DNA of 64,000 nt. Source: Reclinomonas americana ATCC 50394. Taxonomy: Eukaryota. Below, in pieces: positions 873 to 64,000 of the stretch (positions are counted from its first letter, which is position 1; each line of letters begins with the position of its first letter). The notes under the pieces are model-generated. The model was not told where the DNA came from. It saw only the letters and a list, made by a program, of their open reading frames with translations, and searched no databases. The stretch spans positions 334,093 to 398,092 of the forward strand of contig PS015059.1 in NCBI GenBank assembly GCA_048213135.1, written 5' to 3'. The position numbers and the translations under genes were made by a program.

Positions 873-3109
873 TTACGAGGGAATAAACAGATTGCAGTTG
901 TTCACCGAGCCCGTCAGCCGGTCCCAGCCTGTCAGAATCCACACTTGGCCTCTGTAGTAGAAGGTCGCGTTTCTTTTCAGTCACAGGCTACGCTTTCTCA
1001 CCCCCCTGCTGCCCTGCTCCACACCACGCAACGGATAGCTGGCGAATGCGAAAATGGCGATCAGGACCAAGTAGAAGATGAGGAAGGAGCGCATCGAGTC
1101 GTCGGTGTGGGCGGGTTTGCGACACACGCGGAACAGGCGATACCGATCCTTGTAGGTTCTGCGCTCGTCATCAAACAAGATTCAGGCGTCACCGTCGGAG
1201 ATAGTGAGTTGCCCTCCCAACGCAACTCGAGAATGTTGGCCACAATCGTCATGAGAGTAATCATGGGGAAGGTGGTCATGCCGATCCACATGATGAACTG
1301 GCGGTAGAGAACAGATAGATACTCCTCGGCAATGTCGAACTCGGGCTGCGAGAGGTGACAGCGTGAGCAACGCGCATTCAACCCTAATGGCTGCAATAGA
1401 CGTAACTCGCTTCATGTCATCGGCCATCTTGTCGAGCTTCTTGCGACACAAGCAGTAGCGGATGCGCGCGACAATGGGCGGCATGATCAGCTCCACCAGA
1501 TTCAACACAAAAATGTCGATAATGACGACCCAGAAGAACTGCCCGTGATTACACAATAGTGAGTGCACCAGCACACAATGTCAGTCTCATTCGCCGACAC
1601 CGCACCTGATCTGCACGCCCAGCACACACACACATAGTCAGCAATCACAACGACTCAGCGCCCGCAATCAAACCACCTCACCTCCGATCTTATTCATCGG
1701 GCAGTTGTTTGGATCGTCGGGGTACGACTTGACCACGTAGACGACCACAATGTTGCACATCTTGAAGGCCATGAGCTTGAAGAGCAGCTGCTTGTGCTTC
1801 TGGCTCACAGTGCGTAGTCTGCACGTACACAAACAGAGAGACAGTGAGTACATCACACAGAAAACCACAGCACTTCTCAAGGAAGAAACCTCTCAAAATT
1901 AGTGAGAATGTACGCCAGCCGCTTCCAGATCAGGTTGAGAATGACCATGACAATCACAATAATAATGGACTGCGTGGTGTTATTGTTGCTGCTGCCGATG
2001 CGGGAAATCACAAACGTGCCGACACCCTGCATGCACACACAGCGATTCAGCAACTGCAGTCGTCAGCTCGCTCTTTGTCGCGCGTAACTTGCACGCCGAG
2101 TGTCAGCGCAAACACAAAGTACGAAATGACGATACGCGCCGTGCGGTACGACACGTGACGGTTCTCCGGAATATCATCCTCGCCCTCCTCACGGAACCGG
2201 AGGTCGGTGCTCTCCTTGTGTCGTGCGGCATACGCACCCTTCAACCACAGTGCGTAGAGCGGCGCAAACGCCGCCATAATGACCACCGCCACAATGTTGG
2301 TGATTAGCCAGTACGGACGCGTCTTCACAAGGTACGAGCCCACAAAGAGAATGTAGTTAAAGTCGACCTTCTGCTTGATCTCGGCGCCATGCACAAAGTG
2401 CAGAACCCAGTTGATGGCCTCTGCATCACCCCGTGAGAAAGCCACAGACGCCGGGGGTGGCAGCGGAGGCAACGCAACGAGCGGCAAACACCAGCATAGT
2501 GACGTACGTCATAAAGTTGACAAAGTTAAAGTACAACCACACGCCCATGCCGTACGTCTCCTCCACCTCGGCCAACGAGCAACACATGGAGAGATCCGGT
2601 CGCTGATGCTCATTCTGTGCATCGCGCGTCTTGCTGGCGCCACCACGTGGCGACCGCGGCCCATCCAAGTGCTCACGCGCAGCCGCCTGTCGACTTGTGG
2701 TCATGCGTCCCGATGGCGACGCCAGTGCGTACTCGTCCGCTGCCTCCTGACCATTGACTGCTCTTGCAATCAGTGAAAACAAGCAAACAAACGAGCAAAG
2801 GGCCCAAGCATCGCGCAACTATCAACACTGGTCTCTGGCACATGACCTGTGCATGCATGCCTGTTGATTAGCATGACAGTGAGCATGAGGAGCCCTTGAG
2901 GCACTGTACTGACCGATCGGATGCATCTCTCGAGGTCCGTTGGGATTAAGCGCGCGGATTCTGGCCGGTGATGCAGCACCGCCGAGAGGTAATGGAGGTG
3001 GAGGCGCAGGCACCATTGCAGTGCTGTTGTGCACCACAGAGACATCGACCGGAACATGATTGGCGTACTCATTGGCCGCGAGAAAGCGCGAGTTGTTGGG
3101 GTCCTGCAT
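873..3109 (-). CDS. TMC (transmembrane channel-like) family protein, about 11 exons, roughly 520 aa
   Basis: Spliced translation has TMC-like motifs YGMGVWLYFNFVNFMTY, LTNFERLRT, CPMNKIGDQFFWVVIID and PEFDIAEEYLSVLYRQFIMWIGMTTFP. All junctions are GT-AG and in frame; stop TAA at 873-875. Confidence 0.8.
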
Positions 3110-6386: not shown

Positions 6387-7806
6387 TCACTTTGGAACCC
6401 ACGTGCAGTCGTGACGACGAAGCATGTTGCGGAAGAGCGGCCAGAACTCAAAGGTGCGGTACTGCAGCACACACACACAGAAGGCAAGAAACGGTGAGGC
6501 CAATGTGCATCTCGTTCTCTCTGCTGCAGCGCGCGCAACTTCGATGCCGAACTCCTTGCAGGTCTGACGCAGCACGGGGTCGAGAGCGTGCAGTCGCGAG
6601 TGGTCTACTGTGGGGAACAGGTGGTGTAGGATGTGGTAGTTGAGTAGCGCGAAGCCGAAGAGCGAGAGCGCCAGGTTGGCGGTCACAGAGTGGTCGGAGC
6701 TGGCGGCCACGATGTGTCGGCCAAAGTCGAGTTGCGGGTTGGCGTCGCCCTCTGCATCCCAGCATGGTTGGGGAATTGCAAAATAGGGGAAGCGCGCTAA
6801 TGCACTGGGCTCACCTGTCCACGCGAAATCGGTGCGGTGCACGGAGAACGAGGTGGCCACCAGCATCCACGACGCAGTCCACTGCATCACAAAGAAGAGC
6901 AGGAGACCGCGGCCCACGCCGAGACTTCCCATGCACACGGCAGCCTCGGCCACCGACAGCATGATCTCCGGTCGCATGTGCTCCCGTCCCAACACGATGC
7001 ATCCCCACCGACGGACGTAGTCGATCGTGCTGGCCAGCGCGCACACAATGTGGAACGACACGTTGACAATCACCGGATTGCGTGGCTTGTTGGTCATAAA
7101 GTACAGGAACGGCTCAATGCTCTGTAGGCGAGGGTGAGGATTTCTTGTCGGAGAACACGGCTGCCATCGTGCACCACGCAACGCTAATCTCCGTGTCCAA
7201 CTCGGTGTTGGTGAAAAAGTGGTGCGAGATGGCATGCGAAATGCGCCAGTCTGTATGTGCGTATAAGGGAGGGTGAATAGTCGCGGCAGGTGATGGGAGG
7301 GGAAGGGAAGAGGGCATCGGCAGCAACGATGATGTGAGAAGAGCGTCAGGTCGAACGTGTACATCCACCAATTGTCGGCCTTGTGGAAGAAGTTGTGCCC
7401 GACTCCAATCAGGCCGTGCTGTGAGGGCGCGAGAGAATCAGGGACTTGTGAGGAGAAGAGGGGAAAGCGGAGAGCGGAGGCAAAATGGAAGCACAGCAAA
7501 TAGCAGAACGAATCCGGCTCAGTGAATGCGACAAGGAGGCCGGGACACGACAGGGAGGGGAAACAGAATGCATGAGGCAGGTAACAGGAAGCGGAGAGAT
7601 ATGGCTGGAGCGAGAGAGAGAGAGAGAGAGAGAGAAGGAGGAGGGGCAGCAGGAAGAAGAAGACGAACAATGAGGAGGGAGGGAAGGGGAGGGCGGACGA
7701 AATTAGAACCGGAGATCACCAGAACATGGCAAAACATAGTCAACAGGAGAGAGCACGCCAGACGGAACGGGAAACACAGCAGAGATTGTCACGTACATTC
7801 ACAAAG

Positions 7807-7839
<33 letters not shown>

Positions 7840-8806
7840 NNNNNNNNNNNNNNNNNNNNTGCAAACGAAAAGAGAAATGGAGACCACTGGAATACGAGCG
7901 AAAACAAAGGAAACGGGAGAGGAGCCGGGAGACACTGCAAAAGATAAGCGTGAGGCAAGTGCAGTACAAAGGAGGGGAGAGAAAGGGGAGAGAGAGAGCG
8001 CGCGCAAGAGAGAGAGAGAGAGAAAGGGGGAGAGAGAGAGAGAGAGAAAGCGGAGAGAGAAACAGAGTGCGCATGACGAAATAGGGATGGAAGGAACAGC
8101 ACGAGAGAAGCAGAAGAACAGGCAGACGATCGCAGCAAGACAGAAGCCTGCCCAAGAACACAGAGTGAGAAAACGAGCCTGCAAGACAGCCCCCCTCTCT
8201 CTCTCCCCTCCCTTTCCTCCTTTTCTCTACATCTCCTCCCCCTTTCCCCCGTTACCCCCGCTCACCAAAAACACCCCCGCCACCGACGCCATCCACATCG
8301 AGTCCCACGCACACATGAGCGCCACGCTCGCCGCCCACCCCAACAGCGCAAACCAGCACAGCGCCAACATGTACGCCGTCGGGCCCGTCACCAGCTCCTT
8401 CTTGCCCGACGATTGCTGCAACACCGCTGCGGCACGACGTTTCATGGTCTTGTAGAAGCCTGACTCCTCGAACGTGTACCGCGGCGGAGCGAGAGGTCTC
8501 TCCGCATCGCACACGTAGTACTTGGCGAGAATGGCGTCGACCTTTTGCTGGTTAAAGTGGTGAGTCTCGTAGGCCTCGGTGACGTCGGAGCCCCTGTGTG
8601 GATGCAGAGAGAGGAGGGTGAGGAAGGAGAGGGAAATGGAGGGAAAAGGGAGCGTAGGGGAGAGACAAGAAGACAGACAGTCAGGTAGCGAGTCAGACAG
8701 CGAACACTGAGAGAAGAAGGTGAAGAGAAGCAGTGTGCACCAGAAGGTGACACTGAGATGGGAGACGAGAAAGAGAGGGCTGGAGAGAGAGAGAGAGAGA
8801 GACAGA

Positions 8807-8877
<71 letters not shown>

Positions 8878-9182
8878 GGGTTCGAAATGATGATTGTGAT
8901 GCATTCTTCCTTTCTTCGCAACTTGGTCAACTGCAACCAGGCATTGCCACCAGGATGGTCAAAGGTCGACAGATCATACCACTTGCCATGCACACACCAC
9001 AGCGAGTGTGCGGCGTTCTTGCTGGTCGCCTCCGGAGGCCACCTTTTCCCGTCGATTTCGGCTTTTTCGCGCGCCCACACCACGGGCGATTCCATCAACT
9101 GCGAATTGCGAGAGGGCAGGGGTTCGCGCCCGGGAAGAGGCTGTGGAGAGCGAACGGGGCCGCGTGGAACCGAGTTGCCCAT
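6387..9182 (-). CDS. Cytochrome b5-fused fatty acid desaturase-like protein (Cyt-b5-related type)
   Basis: Cyt b5 motif WYDLSTFDHPGG...GSDVTEAYETHH; His boxes GHNFFH, WRISHAISHH and HILHHLFPTVDH; N-terminus MGNS. Confidence 0.9.
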
Positions 9183-9865
9183 TCGCACACACAAAAGATA
9201 CGGTAATCGGACAGACGGACGCAAGCGAGTGCGTCAGTGTCTTTGTGTGATCGTCAGTCGCCTCGGGGGTCATTGAAGCCTTTACGAAGAAGTGTACATG
9301 TCGAATAGAATATATACCTGCGCATGTCCACAAGTCCAGCACAAGTAATCTTCTCCTCACTCGTGCAAACAGCATCAGCACGCACGCTGCGCATGCGCAT
9401 GCCTGCGCGTTCCAGGTCGTGTTCCAAAGAACGGGGCTTGAGCAGTCGCTGGTCGCTGTCCGAGATCAACTGCAACGATTGTGTACGAATTCGAACGCTC
9501 GCTGCGTGCGGAAACTTTCTTTTTGGCGACATCAATCGCGAAGCACGTGCACTGTTACGGCACGACTCGCTGTGTACCTGCGATTGACCACAAGCTAAAG
9601 TCAGAAGAATTTGGACACATGTGCTTGAGCTTGGCATCATAGCACTTGCCATTGAAAGCAGGCGTGAATATTCAAGTGCATTGAAAGTCCATATATACAT
9701 CAAAACCGGGTACATTATAACACAGCTGAACAGTAGTTGCGGCAGTCCGCATCACAGCCAGACACTCCTAGGGTGGGTTAGTCAGTGCCACCTCCGTTCG
9801 AACCCAACTTGACAACGTGGGCGCGCGCCGAAAAAGGAAAACACCAACCGCTGCTGCTATCCGTT

Positions 9866-10431: not shown

Positions 10432-20443
<10,012 letters not shown>

Positions 20444-23655: not shown

Positions 23656-26056
<2,401 letters not shown>

Positions 26057-26154
26057 TTCCTCGCGCGTTGTGTTGATGAAGAGAAACGATTGATTGGTTC
26101 ACTGGTGGATCAATGTGACTGCTTCTCTCTCTTGTGTGTTGTGGTGGGGGGCGA

Positions 26155-29645: not shown

Positions 29646-31933
29646 TCAGCTCCTCTCCACCTCTCCATCCGAATCATCGTCAGCCCCACCTGACGAGCCG
29701 CCGCCGAGCTTGGCCAGCTGTGCCCTCAGCTCCTGAATGGTCTGGTTCTTGCTGTCGAGCATCTTGCGCAGGTTCTTGAACTGGGAGCTGTCCTGCAGGC
29801 GGCCATTCAGCTCGCCCTCCAGCTGCGCCACCTGCGCCGTCCGTCGATCGACCTCGGCACGCGCCTCGGCCAGCTCGCGCTTCAGCGTGTTCACCTGCTC
29901 CTGCTGCGCGGCGGCGGCGGCACCCGACTGCACCGACGCGTCGGCCGACTTGGAGGCGTGCTCCGACAGGCGCGCCTGCAACGCCTCCACCTGCTGCTGC
30001 AGCTCCCTCTCTCGGCTCTGGCTGGCCGCGTTGGCATCGCTCAGCTTGTCCCGCAGCGCAAACACCTCCTCATTCAGCTGCGACTTGTCGTGCATGACAG
30101 TCACCAACTGCTCCTGCAGCTTCTTCAGTTTCTCGCTCTCCTCCGCCGCCGACATGGCCGCGGCTGCGGGTGCGGCGGCAGCGGCAGGTGCTGCCGACGA
30201 GCTGGACATGCTCGGCAATCCCCTCCCCCCGCCCGCCATGGGCGCCATCAGCAAGCGCTGTGCCGCACCCGACGCCTCGGCCTTGGCCATGGCCAGCTCC
30301 AGCTTCACGGCGTCGACACCGCGCGTCGATTGCGAGTCGAGGGTGGTGAAATCGATGGGCGGGTTGATCGGGCCCGGCACGTGCGACATGATGCGGCGAA
30401 TGAGTTCTGCGTGCACCTTGGCCTCGTCCTCGAACTCGGTGTCTGGGGGGAGGAGGGGAAAGAAAAGGGGGAGGAAAGGGGTAAGGGGGTGAGGGGCGAA
30501 AGAGAGAGAATGGACAGATCATAACGAGAAGGAGTCAAAAGAGGTTTCGGCAGAGAGGAGCAAGAAACCAGATCAATCGTGCTTTGTACCACGATGAAGG
30601 AGATGAGAATGGAAATGGGTAAAATGAAAGGAGGACAGGGAGAGAGACCAAGAGCGCGGACAATCAATAAGACAACTCGAAAAACGGAGCAGAGAGGAGT
30701 GTGCAGAGCAGGGCTGCACGCAGAGAGACACACACATGAAAAGAGGGACCGCATGAGCGAGTATGATGCGTGTGGGCGAGTGAGAGAAAGAGAGAGACCG
30801 ACAGAGACTGAGTGAAGCGCGTATAGAATAGGACTACGCACCGAGTGTCACACATACAAAAGAGAGACAGCAAAAGCGAGTATGATGTGTGTGTGTGAGA
30901 GAGAGAAACCGTGAAACAGAGAGAGAAAGTGAGTGATTGTGCGAGTGAAGGGGGGAGGGAGGGAGGAGTGAGGGAGTGAGTGAGAGNNNNNNNNNNNNNN
31001 NNNNNNNNNNNNNNNNNNNNNNNNNNNNNNNNNNNNNNNNNNNNNNNNNNNNNNNNNNNNNNNNNNNNNNNNNNNNNNNNNNNNNNNNNNNNNNNNNNNN
31101 NNNNNNNNNNNNNNNNNNNNNNNNNNNNNNNNNNNNNNNNNNNNNNNNNNNNNNNNNNNNNNNNNNNNNNNNNNNNNNNNNNNNNNNNNNNNNNNNNNNN
31201 NNNNNNNNNNNNNNNNNNNNNNNNNNNNNNNNNNNNNNNNNNNNNNNNNNNNNNNNNNNNNNNNNNNNNNNNNNNNNNNNNNNNNNNNNNNNNNNNNNNN
31301 NNNNNNNNNNNNNNNNNNNNNNNNNNNNNNNNNNNNNNNNNNNNNNNNNNNNNNNNNNNNNNNNNNNNNNNNNNNNNNNNNNNNNNNNNNNNNNNNNNNN
31401 NNNNNNNNNNNNNNNNNNNNNNNNNNNNNNNNNNNNNNNNNNNNNNNNNNNNNNNNNNNNNNNNNNNNNNNNNNNNNNNNNNNNNNNNNNNNNNNNNNNN
31501 NNNNNNNNNNNNNNNNNNNNNNNNNNNNNNNNNNNNNNNNNNNNNNNNNNNNNNNNNNNNNNNNNNNNNNNNNNNNNNNNNNNNNNNNNNNNNNNNNNNN
31601 NNNNNNNNNNNNNNNNNNNNNNNNNNNNNNNNNNNNNNNNNNNNNNNNNNNNNNNNNNNNNNNNNNNNNNNNNNNNNNNNNNNNNNNNNNNNNNNNNNNN
31701 NNNNNNNNNNNNNNNNNNNNNNNNNNNNNNNNNNNNNNNNNNNNNNNNNNNNNNNNNNNNNNNNNNNNNNNNNNNNNNNNNNNNNNNNNNNNNNNNNNNN
31801 NNNNNNNNNNNNNNNNNNNNNNNNNNNNNNNNNNNNNNNNNNNNNNNNNNNNNNNNNNNNNNNNNNNNNNNNNNNNNNNNNNNNNNNNNNNNNNNNNNNN
31901 NNNNNNNNNNNNNNNNNNNNNNNNACGACGACA

Positions 31934-33009: not shown

Positions 33010-35216
33010 TCAATCATATGCGTCACTCAATTGCTTCCTGAATGAATCAAACGTCTCGACAAGAAGCACAATCTGCATCCAAAGGTTAGACGACAACACC
33101 ACTCCCATGCTGGCCAGCAGCTTGTCGGCCAGCAACACATGGTAGATTTCGAACAGTAGCACACGATGCAAGGTTGAGCACGCGAAACCGCGCATGACGC
33201 CACCCGGCGCCAGCATTCTAACCAGCGGAGACTCGATATCGAAGCAGCAACTTCGACGATTGCTGCGGTACATGCGACGGGCATCTCCGACAATTAAAGT
33301 GTCGATCAGACGGCGGAACACGTCAGACGACGGCGCCGCGTCTTGTCGTGGCGGTGCAATGGCGCAGCTGAGCTGCACAAGTGGGAACGGCGACGGCACC
33401 GAGTAATCCGCGGCCGCTTCAAGCACCCACCTGAGCTCGCTGGAGGCGAGAGCACACTTGCACTGATCAGCCCACTCGCTCGCAGTGTGCTCCTCGGGCT
33501 CGCTCGTCAGCTGCACGAAAACGCCCGCGCCACGTTAAGCAATGTGCAATACAAGAGACTTGCTCACGCACACACACAAACGACAATGGCACAAACCTCA
33601 GCTACGTGAGCACCAGTAAGACAACAAAAGGCGAGCTGGTCAAGGTCCCAGCCAGGCCGCTCACCGCTCTCAATTTGACAGTCAATCCTTTTCATCTCTT
33701 TCTCCAACAACCCATCGTTCACCACGGGCAGGACATACGATAAGGAGTACAGAAGCCGTAGCGGCGAGATGTCGCCGTCGTCGAAGCGATCTCTAATCAC
33801 GTCCTGAAGAATCGCAACCCACTGGCCGCGGCTCTCGGCCTCCACATGCACTGCATCCATAATCTTGGGAAACACCAATTCGCTCGACAACTCTCTTCCC
33901 TGCATGCAGCCATCCTGAAGACAGTCTATAAAGGCAAGAGCGAGATCATCCAAAGTCACATGCGATCGGTACTGCGGATACTCCAGCAAACAGTGAACCG
34001 TGATCGCCAACGGAAGAATGCTCTGCTGCAAAACGCACTCGGCAACCTGTCCATCGTCAAGAGCTCCCTCCATGAACCGAGGATTGTCCAGAACAACCCG
34101 CAGCACGCGTGCATCACTGATAGTGCGAAGAAGTTGCTGCAGCCAACTGGTCCTGCGCGGGTGGCATGAGAGATCGCTCTGCAGCAGTGTCCGCAGCATG
34201 GTACAATCAGACGTTTGCGCGGCCACCTCAAACGGTGTTCCTGGCGGCACATCGCCATCGAACAAGCGCACCAAGCGCCCATCTCTTCTGACACAAATGT
34301 CCACGAGTTGGTCATCGGCATCCGCCGGTGTGGTAGCATCCCGAGCCCAGCTGGCGCGAGTGAACATTACACCGGAACCGTCACCCACAACGACCTCGTC
34401 TCGCTCCAGCAACAGTGACACAACATCCGCATGGCCATTCAAGCACGCTTGCAGCAGAGCAATATTATCCGGTTGTCCCGGGTACACCCTATCGTCGGCG
34501 AGCAACGCCGCCACCACTGTTGTGTGGCCGCGAGATGCCGCCTGTCGCAACGGCATATTGTCGGCAACGGTAGGGTCGGCGATGCCTTCGTCCAGCAGCA
34601 GCCGCAAAGTCTCCACATCGTTGGTGGCGGCCGCCAACTCAAGTCGCACGCTCGCCTCCAGGTTGTGCAGCGGCCACGCCTCACGGAGGTCGTCAAGGAC
34701 GGCCTTTTTCCGGCAAATCATGCAGTGTCGCACGGACTTGATCAACATCAACTCGACAAGTTCGGGGTCGACATGAAGACCGAGACCGCCCAGACGTCGG
34801 ATGGCGAAGCCATCAGACACACTGACAGCGGCCCGCAATGCCACATCCAGTGCCTGCGGGCTCATCGCATACTCAATCAGCGGCGTGCGACCGTGCTTCC
34901 GCTCTTGCATAACATTCAGCACGTCTTGCAGGCGACCGCCGACGACTGCGGCAACAGGCCACCACGGACACCATTTGGCCACACTGTCAAAGAATGCGAC
35001 GGGCACCAGGTGGAGGAGAGCAGTGACAGACGCCGTCGGCGCCATCCACAAGCAATGGGCTACTGCGCTCACCCACAAATGCTCCTTGAGCTTCTTCGTC
35101 TTCCACAGACGTTCAGCCGCCGCCTTGTCCACGCGCCCACGCACAGCTTGTGTCAGAAGTGTGGTTGCCTCGCGCCAGGAATGCTGTTTCGCGCAGCAAG
35201 AAAAGATGCAAGTGAG

Positions 35217-38177: not shown

Positions 38178-39368
38178 GATGGTGGGGTGCGAGTTTGCTG
38201 GTGCACTGGCAGGCACGCACATAGTAAGTGAGAAAGGCGCACATATTGGTCTTCTGTGCAGTGAGGATGTGGACTCTCATCTCTCTCCCTTCGCTCTCAT
38301 GTCTTCCTCGTTGTGCTTCTCGTCATTCGTGTATGTCTGTGACGTTCTTACCCGTGCGCTCTCTCACTCATTTGCTGGTCAGACGCATCGTCTCTCGCTG
38401 CTGTTTTCTCATCCCATCTCTTCTTGTTTGCGTGCCTGCAATGATTTGAGTTCTTTCTCTCCCCTGTTCGTCTGCTTGTCAGGCGCAACCTCTCTCACCT
38501 TCTCTTCCTGGGATGTGGACTCTTCCCTCATCCCTTCTCTTCGTGCGCTTGTCTGTCTCATTCTGGTCCTCATTCGTCTGCTTGTCAGACGCATCGCTAC
38601 TATTCTTGTGTGCGTTCCTTCAACTTCCGGGTCTATTCGCGTTCACATTCGTTTGTGTACCAGGCGCAACCTCTCTCGCGGCTGTATACTCATCGCTTCT
38701 CTTCTCTCCCTCTCTTCCCGCTTGTGCGCTGTTTCTCGTACTTCTTGTCTTTGTACATGCGTGCCTGCCACATTCTGGCAGCCGCATCATATCTCGCCTC
38801 TTCTTTCCGTCTTGTGAGCTGTCTTGCTTCTCCCTGCTCTCTCCCTTCTCGCTCGTCGACAGTGCGTGGATTGCTGTCGATCTCTCATCCTCACTTGGTC
38901 AGCGATTCAGCCTCGTACACTGTCTCGTCCGCCATTCGTTATCTGTCGTCTCTCTGACTGCACGTTTGCGTGAATCGGTTGTCCTCTCGCCCTCTGTTCT
39001 CAAACTCAGCGATGAACTCTCCAGACGTCCATACTTGTCTTCAAGATATTTCTCGCCACGCTTCGCCCGCCGTTGTCTCTTTCTGTCCCCCTTGTACACT
39101 CTCGATGTCTGTGCGTCTGTGTGTGCAACTCTCCTTCTCTACCCATCACCGTTCACTCTCCTGTCGTCTACTTCCAGCACAGATTATTCGTCACTCATTC
39201 GCATCACTTTCTCTTCATCTCCCTCCCCATTTCCCTCCCCATCTCGCTCACCCCCCTTCCTCCCCTTTCCCCTCTCCAGTCGACGACATGAGCGGCCGCA
39301 TCGACGACCTGGAGCGGAGCCTAGGCGAACTCATGAGCCAAGCAGGCGTGGACGACGAGGGCAACTAA
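37485..39368 (+). CDS. HSBP1: Heat shock factor binding protein 1 (exons 37485-37535, 37618-37641, 37715-37757, 39280-39368)
   Basis: QELTNYVQGLLGEMQSRFQEMSTAIMGRIDDMSGRIDDLERSLGELMSQAG is the HSBP1 signature. Confidence 0.96.
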
Positions 39369-42407: not shown

Positions 42408-42564
42408 GGTCAAGGGGTCCACATGCCCAAGCAGCTTTGACATTTAATTCTCACACTCGCGTCAGTCGATTGAGAGCCGGTTCGCGGTTGTCAGAGGGGA
42501 CAGACGTTTCATTCTTTCGCGATCGTTGTCGTTCTCATTGCCTGTTTCACAAGGGCACTTCTAA

Positions 42565-45500
42565 TCAGTCGGCTTTCCCGCCCGGAGGCACCAACGCGGT
42601 CTCTTCGACGAGTAACACAGTTTCGACGTCGACTGTGGGAGCCGGTGAGTGCTGCCGGTGACCGTACGTTGGCGACGTCGAGGTCGAGCTGGAGGCGGAG
42701 CCGGAGCCGAGAACGCCACCGCTGCTGCCGCGTTCGGCGGAGATGCCGGACGTGCCGCGGATGAGCGGGATGACCACGGTCTCGAAGAGGCGGTCGAGGA
42801 AACCGGAAATGGTGAATACGCCACCGACCACGGCGCACAGCTTGACGAGGAAGTGCACGAAGGGTGGGCGGGCGACGTGGTGGTTGATTTGGATCGGGTT
42901 CATCTCGAAGATGAAGAAGACGCCTGTTGTGGGAGTAGGGTGAGGGCGGGCACGACACGAGGGGGAGAGATGTGGGGTGGATCGACTCACCAGGCAGGTA
43001 CGGGCCGCGCTTGTTCATAATCTTCAGCATGTGCTCCGTCACCGAGTACGAAAAGGTGGAGATCGGCTCGCCGCCGTGCATGGGGTAGTACTTGGTCGGC
43101 ACCACCTTGACGAAATACTTGAAGGTGGAGCTGCCGGCCTCGGACATTTTCACCACGCCGTCGAGAGGGGTCTGTCGAGGAGGAGGTGGTGGTGGGCAAA
43201 GAGGGAATGGAAAGGGGGAGAAGGGAAGGGGCGCACCTTTTGCACCGTGGGGTCTTCGTCGACGGGGTCGCCAAAAGACAGGTGGTTGATAATGTGCGAG
43301 GGGTCAAAGGTGGCCATGGCGTCCGGGTCGAATTCGTGGACGTGGTGGATGCGGCCTGAAAAAGGGTAGGGGAAGGGTGAGAAAGGGGGAAGGGTACTTG
43401 CGTGTGCGCGGATGTGTGCGCATTATCAACTCTCGCTCCCTTGTGCCAGACTGGTGCGTGTTGTCGGTGTACTCTGTGCATGCGCGGACGTGTGTGTGCG
43501 TATGTGCATCTTTATATCTCTCTCCGTTGTGCCAGATACTCATGAGTGTTGTTGTTGTACTCTGTGTACCCAATGTATGCCTATGAGATGGACAAGAAGG
43601 AGCAAGGATGAGACGGAGAAAGAATGCGACAACAAGGGGCGAGCAGCCAGGAGAGCGGGAATCGGGCTGCAGGAGCGAGATTGAGAAACAAGAGAAATGG
43701 AGAAGGAGGAGAGGCACAGAATCAGCAGGTGCCAACGGGGACAGAGGGGAATGACCGGCGGGAAAGGGGAGATATGAAAGTCGTCAGTAAGCAGGAGAAT
43801 AGGAGAGACAATGAGGGCGAGCTCGCTTCTCAGGCAATGGGAACAGAGGGGAAGGAACGGCGGGAAAGGAGAGAAAGGAAAGTCGTCAGTCAGCAGGAGA
43901 AAACGAGAGACAGCGAGGGCGAGTTCGCCTCTCAGCAAATGGGGACATAGGGGAATGAGCGGCGGAAGCGGAGAGATATGAAAGTCGTCAGTAAGCAGGA
44001 GAAAACGAGAGACAACGAGGGCGAGTTCGCCTCTCAGCAAATGGGGACAGAGGGGAAGGAACAGCGGGAAAGGAGAGACAAAGAGGGTGAGTTCGCTAAT
44101 GTGGAAGCGGAGAGATATGAAAGTCGTCAGTAAGCAGGAGAAAAGGAGAGACAGCGAGGGCGAATTCGCCTCTCAGGCAATGGGGACAGAGGGGAAGGAA
44201 CGGCGGGAAAGGAGAGAAAGGAAAGTCGTCAGTCAGCACAAGAAAGGAGAGACAACGAGGGCGAGTACGCTTCTCAGCCGAGCAAATGATGAGGTGGAAA
44301 GAGAAAGGGAGACTGCACACAGACGGCCGCGCCCTCTCCGTCTCAAACATGAAGCGATAGATGATGAAGAACAAAGCGTTCCGTGACACCGCAGCATACA
44401 TCGCTACGTGTTCCTGCTTCTCTCTCTCTCTCTTCTTTCATCTCCCTCCAATCCCCTCCTTCCGCCCCCCCCCCCCTTCCCTCTCCCAACAAACCTCCCG
44501 CCTGATGCTCAAACGAGTGCCCGGGCGCAAAGTGGAAGTTACCGGCCACACGCTTCACCTGCACGTCGCCACGCACGCGGCATCCAGTGCTCTGCGCCAC
44601 AATGGCAGCCATTTGCGCTGCACGCGAATTGCGCTTCTTCTCGTGATGATGGTGATGGTGATCGTGGTCGTGGTCGTGGTGATCATGGTCGTCGCCCTCG
44701 GCCTCGCGCTCCGCAAAACCCTCCTTCTCGTTGTCATCGGCGTCCTTGTGGTCGTCCTCGTCGTCGTCGGGCACCGCCACCAAATCCTCCGGCGTCATCA
44801 ATGCCTTCCCGTCGCCATCTAGCGGCGTACGCTGCAGCGCACGATCGTAGCCGATCTCCTGATCGCCGGCTACGTCGACGACGTCCAGCGACAGTGCTGT
44901 GGGAGAGGGAAAGAGAGCGGGAAAAGGAAAGGGTGGTGAGGGGCAGGGGAAGGGGGGAAGAGGTGAGGAATCGTTTTTCTTTCGTTCTCGCTCCCTGTTC
45001 TGCTTTTCTTCATCTTCTTCGGAGCTTGTCGTCGATGCTGTTCAGTTGCTGTTTCTTGTCTTACTTCGTTCCTGTCGCTGTTGCGTCTCCGTGCGTTTCT
45101 CCTCCATTTTCTCTTCCTCTTTTCTCGTTCTCCTTGCTGCTCCTTGAATTGTTCAGTCTCTTTATCCTTCTCGTCTGCTTCTTCTTCTTCTGCGTTTCTT
45201 CTTCCATTTCTCTCCCTCTTTTCTTGTTCTCCTTGCTGCTCCTTGAAGTGTTCAGTCTCTTCATCCTTCATGTCTGCTTCTTCTTCTTCTGCGGCCATGC
45301 TTCTCCACTTTCTCTTCCTCTCTTCTCGTTCTCTTTGTTGCTCCTCGTCTGCTTCTTCTTCTGTGACAACCACTTTCTGGCTCACTCCGCGGTCTTCTCC
45401 TCACTCTTCATTCGTGCAATTCTCTTTCTGGTTCTTCTGCTTCTTCTTCTGCGGCCATTCTTCTTGCTCGCTCTGTGTTCTTCTCCTCACTCTTCTTTGC

Positions 45501-46384
45501 TATCCTCGCTGTCTTTCTGCTCGTTCTTCATGCACCCTTTGTCGGTCTCCTTCTCGTGGCTTGTTGTACAGTTTCTTTCTCCTTGCCGTCTGTATCTTCT
45601 TCTGCGACCATCCATCCTGCTCCCTGGGAGAAAGGTCGAGAACGCAGAAGACGGCAAAGTAGGACCAGACATGGGGAACGACAAAGGGTGCACGTACAAC
45701 GAGAAGAAAGAAAGCGAGGTAAACAAGAGGAGAATTGCACGACACGAAGAGAGAGGAGAATATCGACGCTTGCCTTTCTGCGTTGATGCTACAGAGCTAC
45801 ATCCGCGTTCTTCTCGATCATGTCGTGCATGCGGTTCTTCGCACATACTTCTCTCTCGTTTGCGCTTCTTTCGCTTGCTGTTCCCTCCTCTCGGTTGCAG
45901 CTGGTGCATGTCTCCGCGTTCTCGTTGCTTTCTTCTCTGCTTCTTGCTGTTCTCGCTATTCGTCTTCTCCTTTCTACTCCTCCTCCCTTCCAACCCACCA
46001 TCACACTTGGTTCGCGGGAAGGTAATGTCAAACGCGATGCGCAGCTTGCCGCCAAACGACGTGTCCACCACCAGCTCATCCATCGGCACCGGTTGCAGAT
46101 ACGCAAACAGCTCAATGAGGAACAGCAGGCCCATGATTGTCAGCGACACAACGGAAACTGTGACGGAGAAGAGTCAAGTGAGAAAAAGAGACATGATATG
46201 CAACACGTGGCAATCAATAGTGTGGATGTGCAAGGGTGGATGTGTGTGTGGAGTGAGTGAGGGAGTGTGTGTGTGTGTGCGTGTGTGTGCGTTCGACAAT
46301 CAGTTGCGCGTAGGGCATGTTGTGCAGGGTGCGAGTGAGTGAGTGAGTGAGTGAGTGTGTGAGTGAGTGAGTGAATGAGTGAGT

Positions 46385-58912: not shown

Positions 58913-61900
58913 TTATTGAGAGTGTGACAATGCCTGGCTGGCGTATCTTCCGTATCCCGGCTGTGCGCGCGCAGCGATCAGTCAGCAGAAAGTTATGTAT
59001 GCCTTTCTGTAGATCCTCTTTTATCTCTCCATCTTCCTGTCTCTCGTCTCTCAATGTTCTCCCTCACTTCGATCAGTCAGCAGATAGTTTCATACACTCT
59101 GCATTATCTCTTCTCTTCCCGTCAATTCATGCACTTTTCTTCTCTCTCCCCCTCCATCTCCCTGTCTCTAGTGTCTCTCTCTGTCATCCCACTCTCTCCT
59201 TCATTTCGATCGGTAAGCAGAGAGTAATGCATGTTCTTCTTCCGATGTTTGCTTGTCTTTGACGCTGTGCTGCCCACCGTTTCTTCTTTCCACTATCTCC
59301 CTGTCTCTTGTGTTCTCCAGATCCTGCCTCTCTCTAGCACACGTCAGTCAGTCAGCAGAGAATTGTGCATCCAATCAGCATTCTGCTCTTCATCCATCAC
59401 TGCTTCTCCTGTCTCTCGCTATGCCATCCACTCTCTCCCTCGGTATGCTCTGCATTGCTCAGTCAATGCTCCTCTTTCACAATGCCCACAGTTTCCTCTC
59501 TCTCTCTCTCTCATTCCCTCTCTCTCTCCTCCTCCCTCTCCCGTCACCACCCTTTCCCTTCGCCTCCCTTCCCCTTCACGCACCTGACCACGGCGCCTCA
59601 CGCTATCGGGCCGCACAAACAGACCCTGCTTGTCGTCGCATCTAAAATACACGCGGCCGTCCACGCGCCCATCGTTCTTGCCCATGCCGGTTTGGTCGAC
59701 CTCGACGCCCACCCACATGCCGTCGGCAAAATCGGTCGGACCCACGTAGCGCACAGTCGCGCTCAGCATGCGCGAGGTCACCAGCACACGGTCGCCGACT
59801 TGAATCGATGGCGTGTCGCCGCGCGAGGAGCTGCCCGACGAACCGTGCGAGCTGCGAGGCCCCGATCACAGTCAGGGTGGGATGATATGTACGTGGAGGA
59901 ACCGAGAGACAATGACACACCTGTGACCGGCGAATGGTGCGTGCGAGTCGTCGAGTGGTCGGCAGTGCTCAAACGGCTTGCACAGCATTTCGATTTTGCG
60001 CAGCCTGCAGACAATGAAATGAATAAAAATGCAAGGGACGACCTTTCAGCCATCGCACGCAACTCGCGCTGCCGAGCCAAGTCGTACACCGAGCCGAGCA
60101 TTCCCTCCAGCTGCGCAATGCGAGCCGCCATGGCCGCCAGAGTCTCCTGCTCGTCCATCAGCGCCTGCTCGCCCAACAGTTGTGCATCGCCGTTGACGTC
60201 GTCCTCCTCCAATTCGTCGTGTGTCATGGGCGGCCGTGGATCGGGGGCGATTGGCGACTCCACCGCTGCCGTCGTCTCGCGGTCGTGCGATGACGGATTC
60301 ACTGCTGGAGGCAAGAACTGGTGTCGGTATTCGGGAAACGCGGCGGCCATGACATGCGGCGGCACGTGCTGCTGCGCTTCAGGGCCGATGCGCTCAATCG
60401 CATTAGCCAGTCGCGCGCGCAGCGGCTGCACCGTGGCCACCAGGTCGCCGCACTCGGTCATGCTCGTCACCCATTGTGACAGGCCGCCGGCAGGACGACA
60501 CACCAGGCGAATGTACTGCGGCGGGATAATGAGAATGGGGGAGAGAGGGCGCATTCTCTTCACAGCTGCCACACCTCGGGCGATGGATCTTTCAACTTGC
60601 GGAGAAGTGTGCGAATTGCGCGCACTTTGGTCATGGAGATGGCGTCGACATGCAGATCCTCGATAGCATGCCGGAAAGCTGCAGCGTGTTTCGTGGTTAG
60701 CGAAACACAAGGACTCTGTCCACATCAGCAAAAACGCACCAGCTGCGTCCGCCAGCTCCACTCGCACACTGCGCATGCTTTGATCACGATCCAACAGTAC
60801 CATGATGGCCGCCATGACGGCGGTGCACTGCATGTGCGAGAGAACTTCAGAAGCGGCAGCGGAAATAAACAAAAGATGTATGCAGTTCGGTACCTCCACT
60901 GGCGGCGCTGGCATCAACCGAATCTCCTTCAAGTCGGCATCGCGCACATCGCGCAGTCCACGCATCCGCAGCAAGTCGATTTCCGCCTGCAGCGTCGCGC
61001 GTTGTGACTCGAATTGCGAGTACAAGCTCACCACCTCCTCCAACTCGGCTTCGAGGTCAGCCGTGGTGGGAGGCGGTGGTTGCGTGCCGTGATCGGTGCT
61101 GGCAGGTGGTGCTGCTGCTGCTGCGACTGCTGCTGCTGCTGTGGCCTCCTGCCCGACTTGATCGCTTCCGCGGTGTCGACGAGGCCGCCACGTGCGGCGA
61201 CCGGCTGCACCCACCGTGCGCAACTGCAGTTGCACCTCGTGCAAGTCGCGCTCCCGTCGCTCCGCCTCGATTTCCTTTTCCACCACCGAGTCCAGCAGCG
61301 CCACTTTTTGAACGACGGCTCGGATCCACTTGCACATTTCCGCTGCCGCCATGGAGGAGCGACATACGGCCTGTGGGGAAGAGGCGAGAAGGAGTTGAGC
61401 GCAGGTAGGGGGCGGGATGGGGAAAGGGTGCGTACCTCAGGCTCAAAATCTGGGTGATCGAGAAACATTTGCATGCGCTGCGGGAGGTCGCGGGGTAACC
61501 TGTCCAGCTGCATGTATCGCAGTTCCTCAAAGAGTTCCGCTGTGTGTGTGGGAGGGGGAAGGATAATGAGGAAAAAGGATTAAGGAGAGTCTTTGTAACA
61601 GCAATATTTTCCAGCACTTCTTCGCAAGTGATTCTAACTCTCCTGCGAACTCGTGAATGCATTCTTCCGTACCATAGTTGCCGTTCGATGTCTTCTCTGT
61701 GAATCACATGCTATGCACACTTGACAGCCCCTGTTTGCTCCTCTGATGTATGAGGTTCTGTGCGTTCTGATGCAGCTTTCTCTCACTGTCGCAAGTTGCA
61801 TGCGGCCTTCTGCTGTGGCGAAACAGTTGCCTTCTCTCCCTCTCTCTACTTGCTCTCTTACAAAGGCATTTCGCGCTTTGTGACTGTGCACTCGTTGCTT

Positions 61901-63166
61901 TCTGGCGCTGTTCCCTCACTGGAGGCTTCTGCGTGGATGTCTCTCGTGTCGCTGTTCTGCTGCCTCACGTCGCTCTCTCCTCTTCTGAATGCAGTCGTGT
62001 CTCCATTAACTCGCGGCGCAGACCAGCCTGTTCTGACGCGTTCTCCCTCACGTGACGACCCACCTGCAGAGTTCTCCAACATTGCCGGCTGTTTGTGCCC
62101 AAGCAGCACGGCCAGTGCATCAAGAACAAGCTTAACCTGCTCCAACGTCGTCAGGGACGACAGAGAAGTTACAGAGGAACGACTGCGGACGAAACCTTGG
62201 TGGGCGGCTTGCGCATGGCACGCAGCTCGTTGACCGTGGCCAGCGAGAGTCCATTCAGCGTGTCGCTCAGCGCGTGCAAGGGCGCCTCGATGGCGCGGCG
62301 AGCAGAGCGCGCAGCGAGAAGGGCCTGATAGAGAGATAGGGAGGAGGGAGAAGGGCAAGGGATGAGAAGCGGAGAAGGTGAGAAAGGGAGACAAGAGCTG
62401 CATCCGTATATCATCACAAGACAAGGTTACTCTCTGCAGTGCACACACGCCTTGTCCTGCTTCTCTCTGTGTGCATGTGAAGAAGAACGAAGAGATGCGA
62501 GGCATGCAGACGTATCTCACGACACAAGACAAAGCTTCTCTCTGCAAACGAGTGTGCATGCACATGCAGAGCCTTTTGCCCTTCGATTCTCTCTCTCTCT
62601 CAGAGTAAGATGATGCGAGGCATGCATCCATCTCGCTGCAACACAAGGCTTCTCTCTGTGAATGAGTGTGCATGCACATGCAGAGCCTTTTGCTCTTCGT
62701 CTCTCTCTCAGAGTAAGATAATGCGAGGCACGCATCCATCTCGGCAACACAAGGCTTCTCGCCGCGAATGAGTGTGAATGCACATGCAGAGCCTCTGCCC
62801 TTCGTCTCTCTCTCTCTCTCGCTCTGGTTGCAACACAAGGCTGCTCGCTGCAAATGAGTGGGTGCATGTACATGCAGTGCCCTATGCTCTTCATCTCTTT
62901 CTCTCTCTCTCTCTCTCAGAGGAAGATGATGCGAGACATGCATCCATCTCGTTGCAACACAAGGCTTCTCTCTGCGAACGACGCATGCGACTTGCTTCTC
63001 TCTTTCAAGAGCAAAGAGGAATGCACGAAGACAAAAATCACGAAAAGACGATGCCTGTGCCATGTGTGTAAGCATGCTTGTGTGTGTGTGTGTGAGAGAG
63101 AGAGAAAAAGACAAGGTGATTGCATGCAGAGGATTGATATCTCCTGGGTTTGCATGTCATGTGCCC

Positions 63167-63205
<39 letters not shown>

Positions 63206-63316
63206 NNNNNNNNNNNNNNNNNNNNGTAGTAGTAGTAGTAGTAGTACGTACGTAACGTACGTACGTAGTACGTACGTACGTCGTCTCGTCCTCTACTACT
63301 ACTCGTCTCTCGTCTC

Positions 63317-63364
<48 letters not shown>

Positions 63365-63530
63365 CGCGCATATGTGTGACAGCGTGTGCATGCGCGTGCA
63401 TCAAGACAACTACGATTTCAAAACCCACACGCATCTCTCTCTCTCACACACTCACTCACTCTCTCACACACACCTTCATATAAGCAGCCTCATAGGCCAC
63501 CAGTCGACTCTGCAACTCTGCCTCACTCAT
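58913..63530 (-). CDS. Motorless protein with two dynein stalk microtubule-binding domains and a C-terminal CAP-Gly domain
   Basis: Stalkhead motifs LSLATVNELRAMRKPPTKVKLVLDALAVLLG...HPDFEPEAVCRSSMAAAEMCKWIRAV and LRDVRDADLKEIRLMPAPP..VMAAIMVLL...VCRPAGGLSQWVTSM..VQPLR; CAP-Gly ATVRYVGPTDFADGMWVGVEVD..GKNDGRVDGRVYFRC...GLFVRP. Last exon tentative. Confidence 0.82.
62530..63000 (+). repeat. Intronic degenerate tandem repeat, about 115-bp period
   Basis: GAGTGTGCATGCACATGCAGAGCC and CATCCATCTCG..CAACACAAGGCTTCTC recur. Confidence 0.8.
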
Positions 63531-63619: not shown

Positions 63620-63709
63620 ATGAGGGCGGCGAGTGGCTCCTCTGGTGCTAGTGGAAGCGCCTCTGCTCCTCCAGACCCGTTCTTGGTCGATTCCTCAATG
63701 TCGTACTCG
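63620..63709 (+). CDS. Probable first exon of a gene continuing off the right edge
   Basis: ATG...MRAASGSSGASGSASAPPDPFLVDSSMSYS followed by G|GTGAGT donor at 63710. Confidence 0.5.
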
Positions 63710-63733
63710 GTGAGTGAGTGAGAGAGAGAGAGA

Positions 63734-63764
<31 letters not shown>

Positions 63765-64000
63765 TGTGAGAGAGAGAGAGGGAAAGAGCGAGAGTGAGAG
63801 AGAGTGTGAGAGAGTGAGAGGGAGATTAGGCGAGGATAGTCGTCGCCTTACACACTTAATCTCTCGCCTTATCCTTGCCTTCCTCACTCTTTCTCTCTCT
63901 CTCACTCTCTCTCTCTCTCTCACTCACTCTCACTCTCTCTCTCTCTCTCTCACTCCAGTTCCTTCCTGTGTCACTTCCTGCTTTCCTCTGATGCCTCTCT

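Follow-up and report, generated by a model that had tools for sequence, protein, structure and literature searches.

Two putative dynein stalkheads joined to a CAP-Gly domain in a predicted non-motor protein of Reclinomonas americana

Can the microtubule-binding tip of dynein occur in a protein that is not a motor? The question is raised by a locus of Reclinomonas americana ATCC 50394 (GenBank assembly GCA_048213135.1, contig PS015059.1), lying within a stretch of 64,000 nucleotides (positions 334,093 to 398,092 of the forward strand) that we refer to throughout as the window. The window has a G+C content of ~54%, many GA/CT microsatellites, and 14 runs of N. On its minus strand, we read a gene whose product carries two repeat units resembling the dynein stalkhead (the microtubule-binding domain [MTBD] of the motor), followed by a CAP-Gly domain. 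On balance, we favor the view that this locus holds an intact eukaryotic gene with spliced exons, whose product of ~600 residues is associated with microtubules but is not a motor.

The gene model was obtained by reading the three minus-strand frames and joining their open stretches at canonical borders. It runs from 63530 to 58913, the same coordinates as those of an initial annotation of this DNA, and comprises 10 exons separated by introns that are all of the GT-AG type; the 1821 nt in frame encode 606 amino acids (aa) and end with a TAA at 58913. Based on the exon coordinates, introns 1 to 9 measure 1149, 59, 524, 65, 66, 61, 59, 191, and 623 nt. The parts of the model, in the direction of transcription, are as follows.

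63474..63530, minus strand: exon 1, aa 1-19 (MSEAELQSRLVAYEAAYMK), with the putative start ATG at 63530, an in-frame TGA before it (63554-63552), and a GT donor after it
62325..63473, minus strand: intron 1, 1149 nt, with a 20-N gap (63206-63225), a 114-bp tandem repeat in 2.7 copies (62525-62820), and TC/GTAC microsatellites
62196..62324, minus strand: exon 2, aa 20-62, helix CC1a and putative stalkhead helix H1 of unit 1 (ELRAMRKPP); GT-AG borders; in a profile with its unit 2 counterpart, it matches dynein H1
62064..62136, minus strand: exon 3, aa 63-86, H2-H3 of unit 1 (VKLVLDALAVLLG...); GT-AG borders; it aligns with exon 6 and extends the dynein alignment across the splice junction
61436..61539, minus strand: exon 4, aa 87-121, 104 nt, H4-H5 region of unit 1; GT-AG borders; length and phase as in exon 7; no dynein match on its own
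60894..61370, minus strand: exon 5, aa 122-280, contributing H6 and CC2a to unit 1 and CC1b and H1 to unit 2, with a low-complexity linker (including a TGC/GCA repeat) between the two
60740..60827, minus strand: exon 6, aa 281-309, H2-H3 of unit 2; GT-AG borders; aligned with exon 3
60575..60678, minus strand: exon 7, aa 310-344, 104 nt, H4-H5 region of unit 2; GT-AG borders; aligned with exon 4
60043..60515, minus strand: exon 8, aa 345-501, H6 of unit 2 (AGGLSQWVTSM), a short CC2b (VQPLRARL), a proline-rich stretch, and a long helix-like segment; GT-AG borders; a row of the H6 profile that matches dynein H6-CC2
59584..59851, minus strand: exon 9, aa 502-591, a serine-rich linker and the CAP-Gly domain; acceptor cag, donor gtgcgt; Pfam PF01302 at 85.4 bits
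58913..58960, minus strand: exon 10, aa 592-606 and the in-frame TAA (58913-58915); acceptor cacag
61308..62240, minus strand: putative stalkhead (dynein MTBD-like) unit 1, aa 48-142, spread over exons 2-5
60453..60938, minus strand: putative stalkhead (dynein MTBD-like) unit 2, aa 266-365, spread over exons 5-8 and more diverged
59599..59799, minus strand: CAP-Gly core with GKNDG, aa 519-585 of 606, covering Pfam profile positions 1-65 of 65

The copies of the tandem repeat in intron 1 (62525-62820) show 84% matches, and TC and GTAC microsatellites flank the 20-N gap (within 63168-63362). The repeat in exon 5, read as TGC, occupies 61110-61141. Intron 5 (60828-60893, 66 nt) is itself in frame and stop-free, such that an unspliced reading stays open, and a structure-database alignment of the CC1-H1-H2 profile (described below) ran a few residues into it; we kept 60828-60893 as an intron because splicing it out gives a closer fit to the dynein H2 pattern.

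The identity of the C-terminal domain is certain: it is a CAP-Gly domain. Exon 9 matches PF01302 over the entire profile at 85.4 bits (E value, 2.5e-24; cut-off, 26.5 bits), with an E value of 8e-24 when a longer piece of the exon is scanned, and the GKNDG loop reads as intact. The initial annotation had described just such a domain, and this hidden Markov model check bears it out. The nearest CAP-Gly sequences by score are a restin homologue, KIF13A/B, and proteins without a name; all 10 matches of the CAP-Gly exon among longer proteins are ordinary CAP-Gly proteins, none of them with a stalk family, and its clusters in a protein-language-model atlas are CAP_GLY-only in 30 cases out of 30. 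The sole match to this exon in metagenomes (locus L002) was rejected as unrelated: its CAP-Gly domain is N-terminal, and tblastn with the whole model recovered no stalkhead. A separate observation concerns a 1381-aa protein from an ENA record (P0003), in which a CAP-Gly domain 50% identical to that of the window accompanies a myosin head (PF01302 and PF00063).

Ahead of the CAP-Gly domain, the same pair of signatures appears twice. Unit 1 contains ELRAMRKPP..VKLVLDALAVLL across exons 2 and 3 and AAEMCKWIRAV in exon 5; unit 2 is more degenerate and contains EIRLMPAPP..AVMAAIMVLL, then AGGLSQWVTSM. Both copies of the stalk signature that had been reported to precede the CAP-Gly domain are therefore present as motifs, in exons 2-3 and 5 and again in unit 2. 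Relaxed patterns for H1 and H6 each occur exactly twice in a six-frame translation of the whole window, only in this gene and in the order H1(52)-H6(130)-H1(270)-H6(353); 200 mononucleotide shuffles of the window gave mean occurrences of 0.05 and 0.045, although this control is lenient because the patterns were written after the sequence had been seen. When the two units are compared directly (residues 1-175 versus 216-395), blastp aligns them over H1-H2 at an E value of 8e-4, and their Smith-Waterman score of 58 (shuffle mean, 33.7 +/- 5.6; z, 4.3) is reached in 2 of 2000 shuffles. The gene structure repeats as well: each unit has three introns at equivalent positions and phases (after ...KPPTK / ...APPVE in phase 0, ...ENSA / ...ADAA in phase 1, and ...FEPE / ...PSPE in phase 0), and exons 4 and 7 are 104 nt each. 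Because the units are similar, their intron positions and phases equivalent, and exons 4 and 7 equal in length, we take the head pair to be an old tandem duplication of a four-exon unit.

A relative of this arrangement exists elsewhere. A full HMMER search of 1.84 billion representative proteins with the read-through of exons 5 to 8 returned one match (P0001; E value, 5.8e-06; 37% identity), a 162-aa environmental fragment from an 838-bp contig that spans H6 of unit 1, the linker, and H1 of unit 2. Identity amounts to 14 of 29 positions in H6 and CC2a and 22 of 55 in CC1b and H1 but to 13 of 50 in the linker, and the similarity stops exactly at the position of the exon 5 donor in the window. 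As the fragment spans the junction from H6 through the linker to H1, the tandem arrangement exists in a second organism, and, judged from these alignments, tandem heads appear to be conserved in at least one organism besides R. americana. Other searches were empty: a word-indexed protein search found no orthologue among proteins of 291-928 aa, whether with the read-through of exons 5-8 or with exon 8 alone, and scanning metagenome, genome, and viral contigs for loci that match an alignment (A1) yielded none either. A look for PF12777 in control genomes likewise had no match. Such negatives say little about rarity because the collections hold few protist proteins.

These data also bear on whether the locus encodes a working protein at all. 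It could instead be a decaying remnant, in which pieces of a dynein heavy-chain gene were duplicated and joined to a CAP-Gly exon, leaving no functional product; the greater degeneracy of unit 2 and the position of the locus amid repeats and an assembly gap would suit such an origin. Against this stand 10 exons in frame with canonical borders and no internal stops, a full-length CAP-Gly domain with its GKNDG intact, and a homologue at 37% identity whose helices are better preserved than its linker and which seems to have an exon border in common, a pattern indicative of purifying selection. We therefore regard decay as very improbable.

What, then, are the two heads? Pfam scans were run on contiguous, exon-sized translations, over which each head is split into four exons in different frames. 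In these scans, the best family for exon 5 is PF12777 (MT, the microtubule-binding stalk of the dynein motor; 13.4 bits; E value, 0.041), and the match covers profile positions 191-240 of 344, which is where H6 and the start of CC2 are expected. PDB sequences were also searched with small profiles built from equivalent pieces of both units, plus P0001 where it overlaps. The CC1-H1-H2 profile (A6) has 11 matches at E values of ≤10, comprising 10 named dynein heavy chains and one AAA+ chain of 4,625 residues; all of them align at H1, the best with an E value of 0.035. With a CC1-H1 profile (A3), dynein accounts for 5 of 14 matches, including the top two (E values, 0.075 and 0.31). The H6-CC2 profile (A2) retrieves named dynein heavy chains in 7 of 12 matches, the best at an E value of 0.24, and two further chains of >4,000 residues at the same relative place. 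Finally, the combined profile (A7) finds dynein in four of its five matches and aligns collinearly to two parts of the 277-residue chain of 8i3j_A, a DNAH1 stalk construct: residues 80-102 (H1) and 186-225 (H6-CC2). Solved dynein stalks matched in these searches comprise 8i3j_A (DNAH1), 6rza_X, 6l4p_B, 2rr7_A, and 6kjo_A. The H1 and H6 signature helices are thus collinear with solved dynein stalkheads at E values (0.035-3) that are statistically weak, although the pattern is consistent. Across the spliced junction of exons 2 and 3, the sequence agrees with 8i3j_A at 10 of 20 positions (counted by eye), which supports both the homology and the splice model.

Several results weigh against this reading. 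The PF12777 score for an exon-sized piece stays below the cut-off of 24 bits, and the family is absent from the Pfam results for every exon piece other than exon 5. The best PDB E values lie between 0.035 and 0.24, with no dynein match at a conventional threshold, and the top match of the H6-CC2 profile is the coiled-coil protein DRC2 (E value, 0.12). Two profiles retrieved no dynein from the PDB: that of H4-H5 (none of six matches, with SZT2 matched at an E value of 0.0053) and that of H2-H3 (none of one match, the sole hit being Inscuteable). Single-sequence phmmer searches of the PDB with exons 5 and 8 gave nothing meaningful, and the heptad periodicity of the flanking helices (Fourier power) is an uninformative signal. 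Given the SZT2 and Inscuteable matches and the null single-sequence searches, E values from such tiny profiles are unreliable on their own. Beyond the heads, no full-length orthologue was found in the protein, metagenome, genome, and viral collections, which hold few protist proteins, and the two ends of the model are less secure than its middle: we infer ATG 63530 as the start codon, and exon 10, also inferred, is the least certain exon, the alternative being that the exon 9 donor is read through to a stop near 59422.

Taken at face value, these figures would allow the likeness to be coincidental or to reflect generic helical composition, in which case the gene would encode a plain coiled-coil CAP-Gly protein with an internal repeat. 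Every dynein match is below threshold, two of the four segment profiles lack one, small profiles yield chance matches that are as good or better (SZT2 and DRC2), and the neighbors of exon 5 in the protein-language-model atlas are prefoldin-like coiled coils (0.82-0.85). We nonetheless consider coincidence improbable. The dynein hypothesis was stated ahead of any search, and H1 and H6 independently lead to one and the same family, with their order and spacing correct and both on a single 277-residue PDB chain; moreover, the matches fall on globular helices with signature residues (R-x-M-x-x-P-P and C-x-W-[IV]-R-A) rather than on heptad repeats. The preponderance of named heavy chains among the A6 matches (10 of 11) points the same way, and dividing the E value by the library size gives, by hand arithmetic, per-comparison probabilities of ~2e-7 for the A6 profile and ~2e-6 for PF12777 in exon 5. 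The case for stalkheads is built on this combination of a family named before the search, two independent segments, their order and spacing, and globular helices in place of heptads, and we assign both units to the dynein stalkhead with good, if not complete, confidence. The dynein-stalk assignment made initially thus has the support, short of proof, of H1 and H6, whose profiles mostly retrieve dynein and do so collinearly; the PF12777 score reached with exon-sized pieces lies below the cut-off.

If the heads are those of dynein, is there a motor to go with them? In a dynein heavy chain, six AAA+ modules form a ring from which the stalk emerges at AAA4 and to which it comes back at AAA5. Pfam scans detected no family of dynein or of AAA-ring modules from 40000 to the end of the window (109 of the 122 stop-free frames of ≥90 aa, the 13 omitted being inside the gene) or before 40000 (121 stop-free frames of ≥100 aa, with frames dropped when their three commonest residues made up ≥42%), and the only P-loop matches among these frames belong to an adenylate kinase (25702-26109). 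The second head leads into a proline-rich stretch and a helix and then the CAP-Gly domain and a stop; therefore, the AAA5-AAA6 half of a dynein ring is absent, whatever lies upstream. The gene model, the internal repeat, the PDB matches, the Pfam CAP-Gly hit, and the scans within the window together back the original proposal of a short protein with a double stalkhead and a CAP-Gly domain and with no motor domains in reach.

The 5′ end calls for closer inspection since the window extends for 470 bases beyond ATG 63530. An in-frame TGA lies eight codons before this ATG (63554-63552), with no convincing acceptor between the two, and further upstream there is one more feature.

63621..63710, either strand: ambiguous exon-like stretch; the plus strand reads ATG...GTGAGT, and the minus strand has a (CT)n tract and AG, then a frame open to 63574

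This stretch sits beside a (GA)n tract at 63712-63825. Because it is exon-like on both strands, a divergent gene near 63620 and an upstream exon on the minus strand are both possible but unproven. The latter would mean that our model is truncated at its 5′ end and that the gene runs upstream of 63530, either past the window or within the gap in intron 1. The heads and the CAP-Gly domain would then make up the C-terminal end of a longer chain that also carries other domains or, as the least likely case, AAA modules. In addition to the short distance to the window's edge, truncation would fit the minus-strand (CT)n and AG at ~63705, whose frame, open to 63574, offers GT donors in phase with exon 2; the 20-N gap in intron 1, whose true size is not fixed and which could hide an exon; and the missing orthologue at 291-928 aa, which is expected too if the true protein is longer. 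Other points make truncation rather unlikely in our view: besides the in-frame TGA without an acceptor, the candidate upstream exon is mostly encoded by CT repeats, and the N-terminal helix (47 aa before H1) already exceeds its presumed partner CC2a (~30 aa), which suggests that the first hairpin needs no more. Even an extended protein would have no AAA5, AAA6, or dynein C-terminal domain after the stalkheads and so would not be a conventional dynein.

Taking the gene as modeled, we find a non-motor, multivalent microtubule binder to be the most likely product. Its predicted layout consists of two diverged dynein stalk tips (six-helix MTBDs) on short helical arms of ~30-45 residues instead of a long stalk, with a low-complexity linker joining the two heads and a proline/serine-rich tether leading to the C-terminal CAP-Gly domain. 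In dynein, the stalkhead, a bundle of six helices of which H1, H3, and H6 face tubulin, docks in the groove between α- and β-tubulin on the lattice, and its affinity is set by the register of the two stalk helices under the control of the AAA+ ring; CAP-Gly domains have as partners the acidic-aromatic C-terminal tails of α-tubulin and of EB proteins. By extension, each stalkhead of the window protein would dock between α- and β-tubulin, as does the dynein MTBD, while the CAP-Gly domain would grip the acidic-aromatic tail of either α-tubulin or an EB-type protein. Since no AAA+ ring is there to shift the register of the stalk, a single fixed affinity state would be expected for the heads. The outcome would be a static, high-avidity, three-point lattice binder that stabilizes, bundles, or crosslinks microtubules and incidentally occupies the dynein/kinesin site; binding of both heads to the same microtubule and bridging of two microtubules are each compatible with the sequence. 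A "three-site crosslinker or dynein competitor," as initially put forward, can thus reasonably be proposed from what both domain families do.

How does such a protein compare with known systems? It shares with a dynein heavy chain the signature helices H1 and H6, correctly ordered and spaced, and each head lies between two helical arms, as between CC1 and CC2 in dynein; unit 2 also has a V-x-P-L-R turn after H6, as does the chain aligned with the H6-CC2 profile. Unlike a heavy chain, it lacks an AAA+ ring, linker, and C-terminal domain (by Pfam, within the window) and has two tandem heads per chain, where dynein has one, carried at the end of a long antiparallel coiled coil. The dynein stalk measures ~100 residues per arm, versus ~30-45 in the window protein, whose flanking helical segments span ~30-47 residues, and unit 1 is shorter between H2 and H4. 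With no ring, two heads, and a short stalk, we reject its identification as a dynein heavy chain.

Among CAP-Gly proteins, CLIP-170/restin and p150Glued (dynactin 1) likewise pair a full CAP-Gly domain with GKNDG with helical segments, but their CAP-Gly domains are N-terminal, whereas that of the window protein is C-terminal (aa 519-585 of 606), and a dynein-like part of it, not a basic or serine-rich region, presumably binds the lattice. A ubiquitin-like domain, a coiled coil, and a C-terminal CAP-Gly domain make up tubulin-folding cofactor B. Cofactor B shares with the window protein a small size, a helical central part, and a CAP-Gly domain at the C terminus, but the window protein is ~2.5 times longer and has two stalkhead units. 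Pfam scans of the exon pieces detected no dynactin, CLIP zinc-knuckle, or kinesin family and no ubiquitin-like domain. We thus rejected identity with CLIP-170, p150Glued, or cofactor B, given the C-terminal CAP-Gly domain (as regards the first two) and the absence of family-specific domains from these scans. Overall, the protein is predicted to work like a structural microtubule-associated protein whose parts derive from known families.

The remainder of the window encodes a variety of other genes. Exons of an ERGIC/ERV-type vesicle transporter extend over 42512-46173 (minus strand), with PF07970 in three frames and PF13850 (ERGIC_N) at 45490-46173. A 290-aa open frame at 29649-30518 (minus strand) matches PF15294 ("Leu_zip"; E value, 5.5e-11), a family that we take to be tied to ciliary trafficking and that would make this the second cytoskeleton-related gene in the window. 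At 33567-35216 (minus strand), an uninterrupted frame of 550 aa contains ankyrin repeats (PF12796; E value, 2.6e-09), an unusually long exon for such an intron-rich window. Pfam matches within single exons include a TMC domain (1064-1411, minus strand), a fatty-acid desaturase (6390-7715, minus strand), an adenylate/guanylate cyclase catalytic domain (19510-19992, plus strand), the adenylate kinase mentioned above (minus strand), and HSBP1 (38958-39365, plus strand). Read by eye, an HPGG-containing frame at 8442-9233 resembles a cytochrome b5 module upstream of the desaturase.

As far as literature listings and the opening parts of abstracts go, dynein stalkheads have not been described in any protein other than dynein, nor has a stalkhead combined with a CAP-Gly domain; in PMC4446032 and PMC2758671, the single passages with "CAP-Gly" are reference-list entries. 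Databases may already list the protein as a "CAP-Gly domain-containing protein" that nobody has studied.

The broadest form of our proposal is that dynein motors are not the sole carriers of the dynein stalkhead: one protist lineage or more would have excised it together with a stub of its stalk, duplicated it in tandem, and fused it to a CAP-Gly domain. The resulting protein, conserved in at least two organisms, would act as a passive staple that grips microtubules at three points and sits on the dynein/kinesin footprint of stable arrays. On the sequence evidence, we see about equal reason to accept this generalization and to doubt it. The stalkhead is usually studied as the output end of an allosteric machine, in which sliding of the stalk helices sets affinity. 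If our interpretation is true, a head on a short stub without a ring would show which register and affinity the head takes when left alone, and would offer a natural counterpart to the engineered fixed-register stalkhead constructs of structural work. It would also represent a clear case of domain recruitment from a motor to a structural protein and add a new class of lattice binder to the microtubule-associated proteins of a protist lineage in which the great stability of microtubule arrays has so far been explained only in part.

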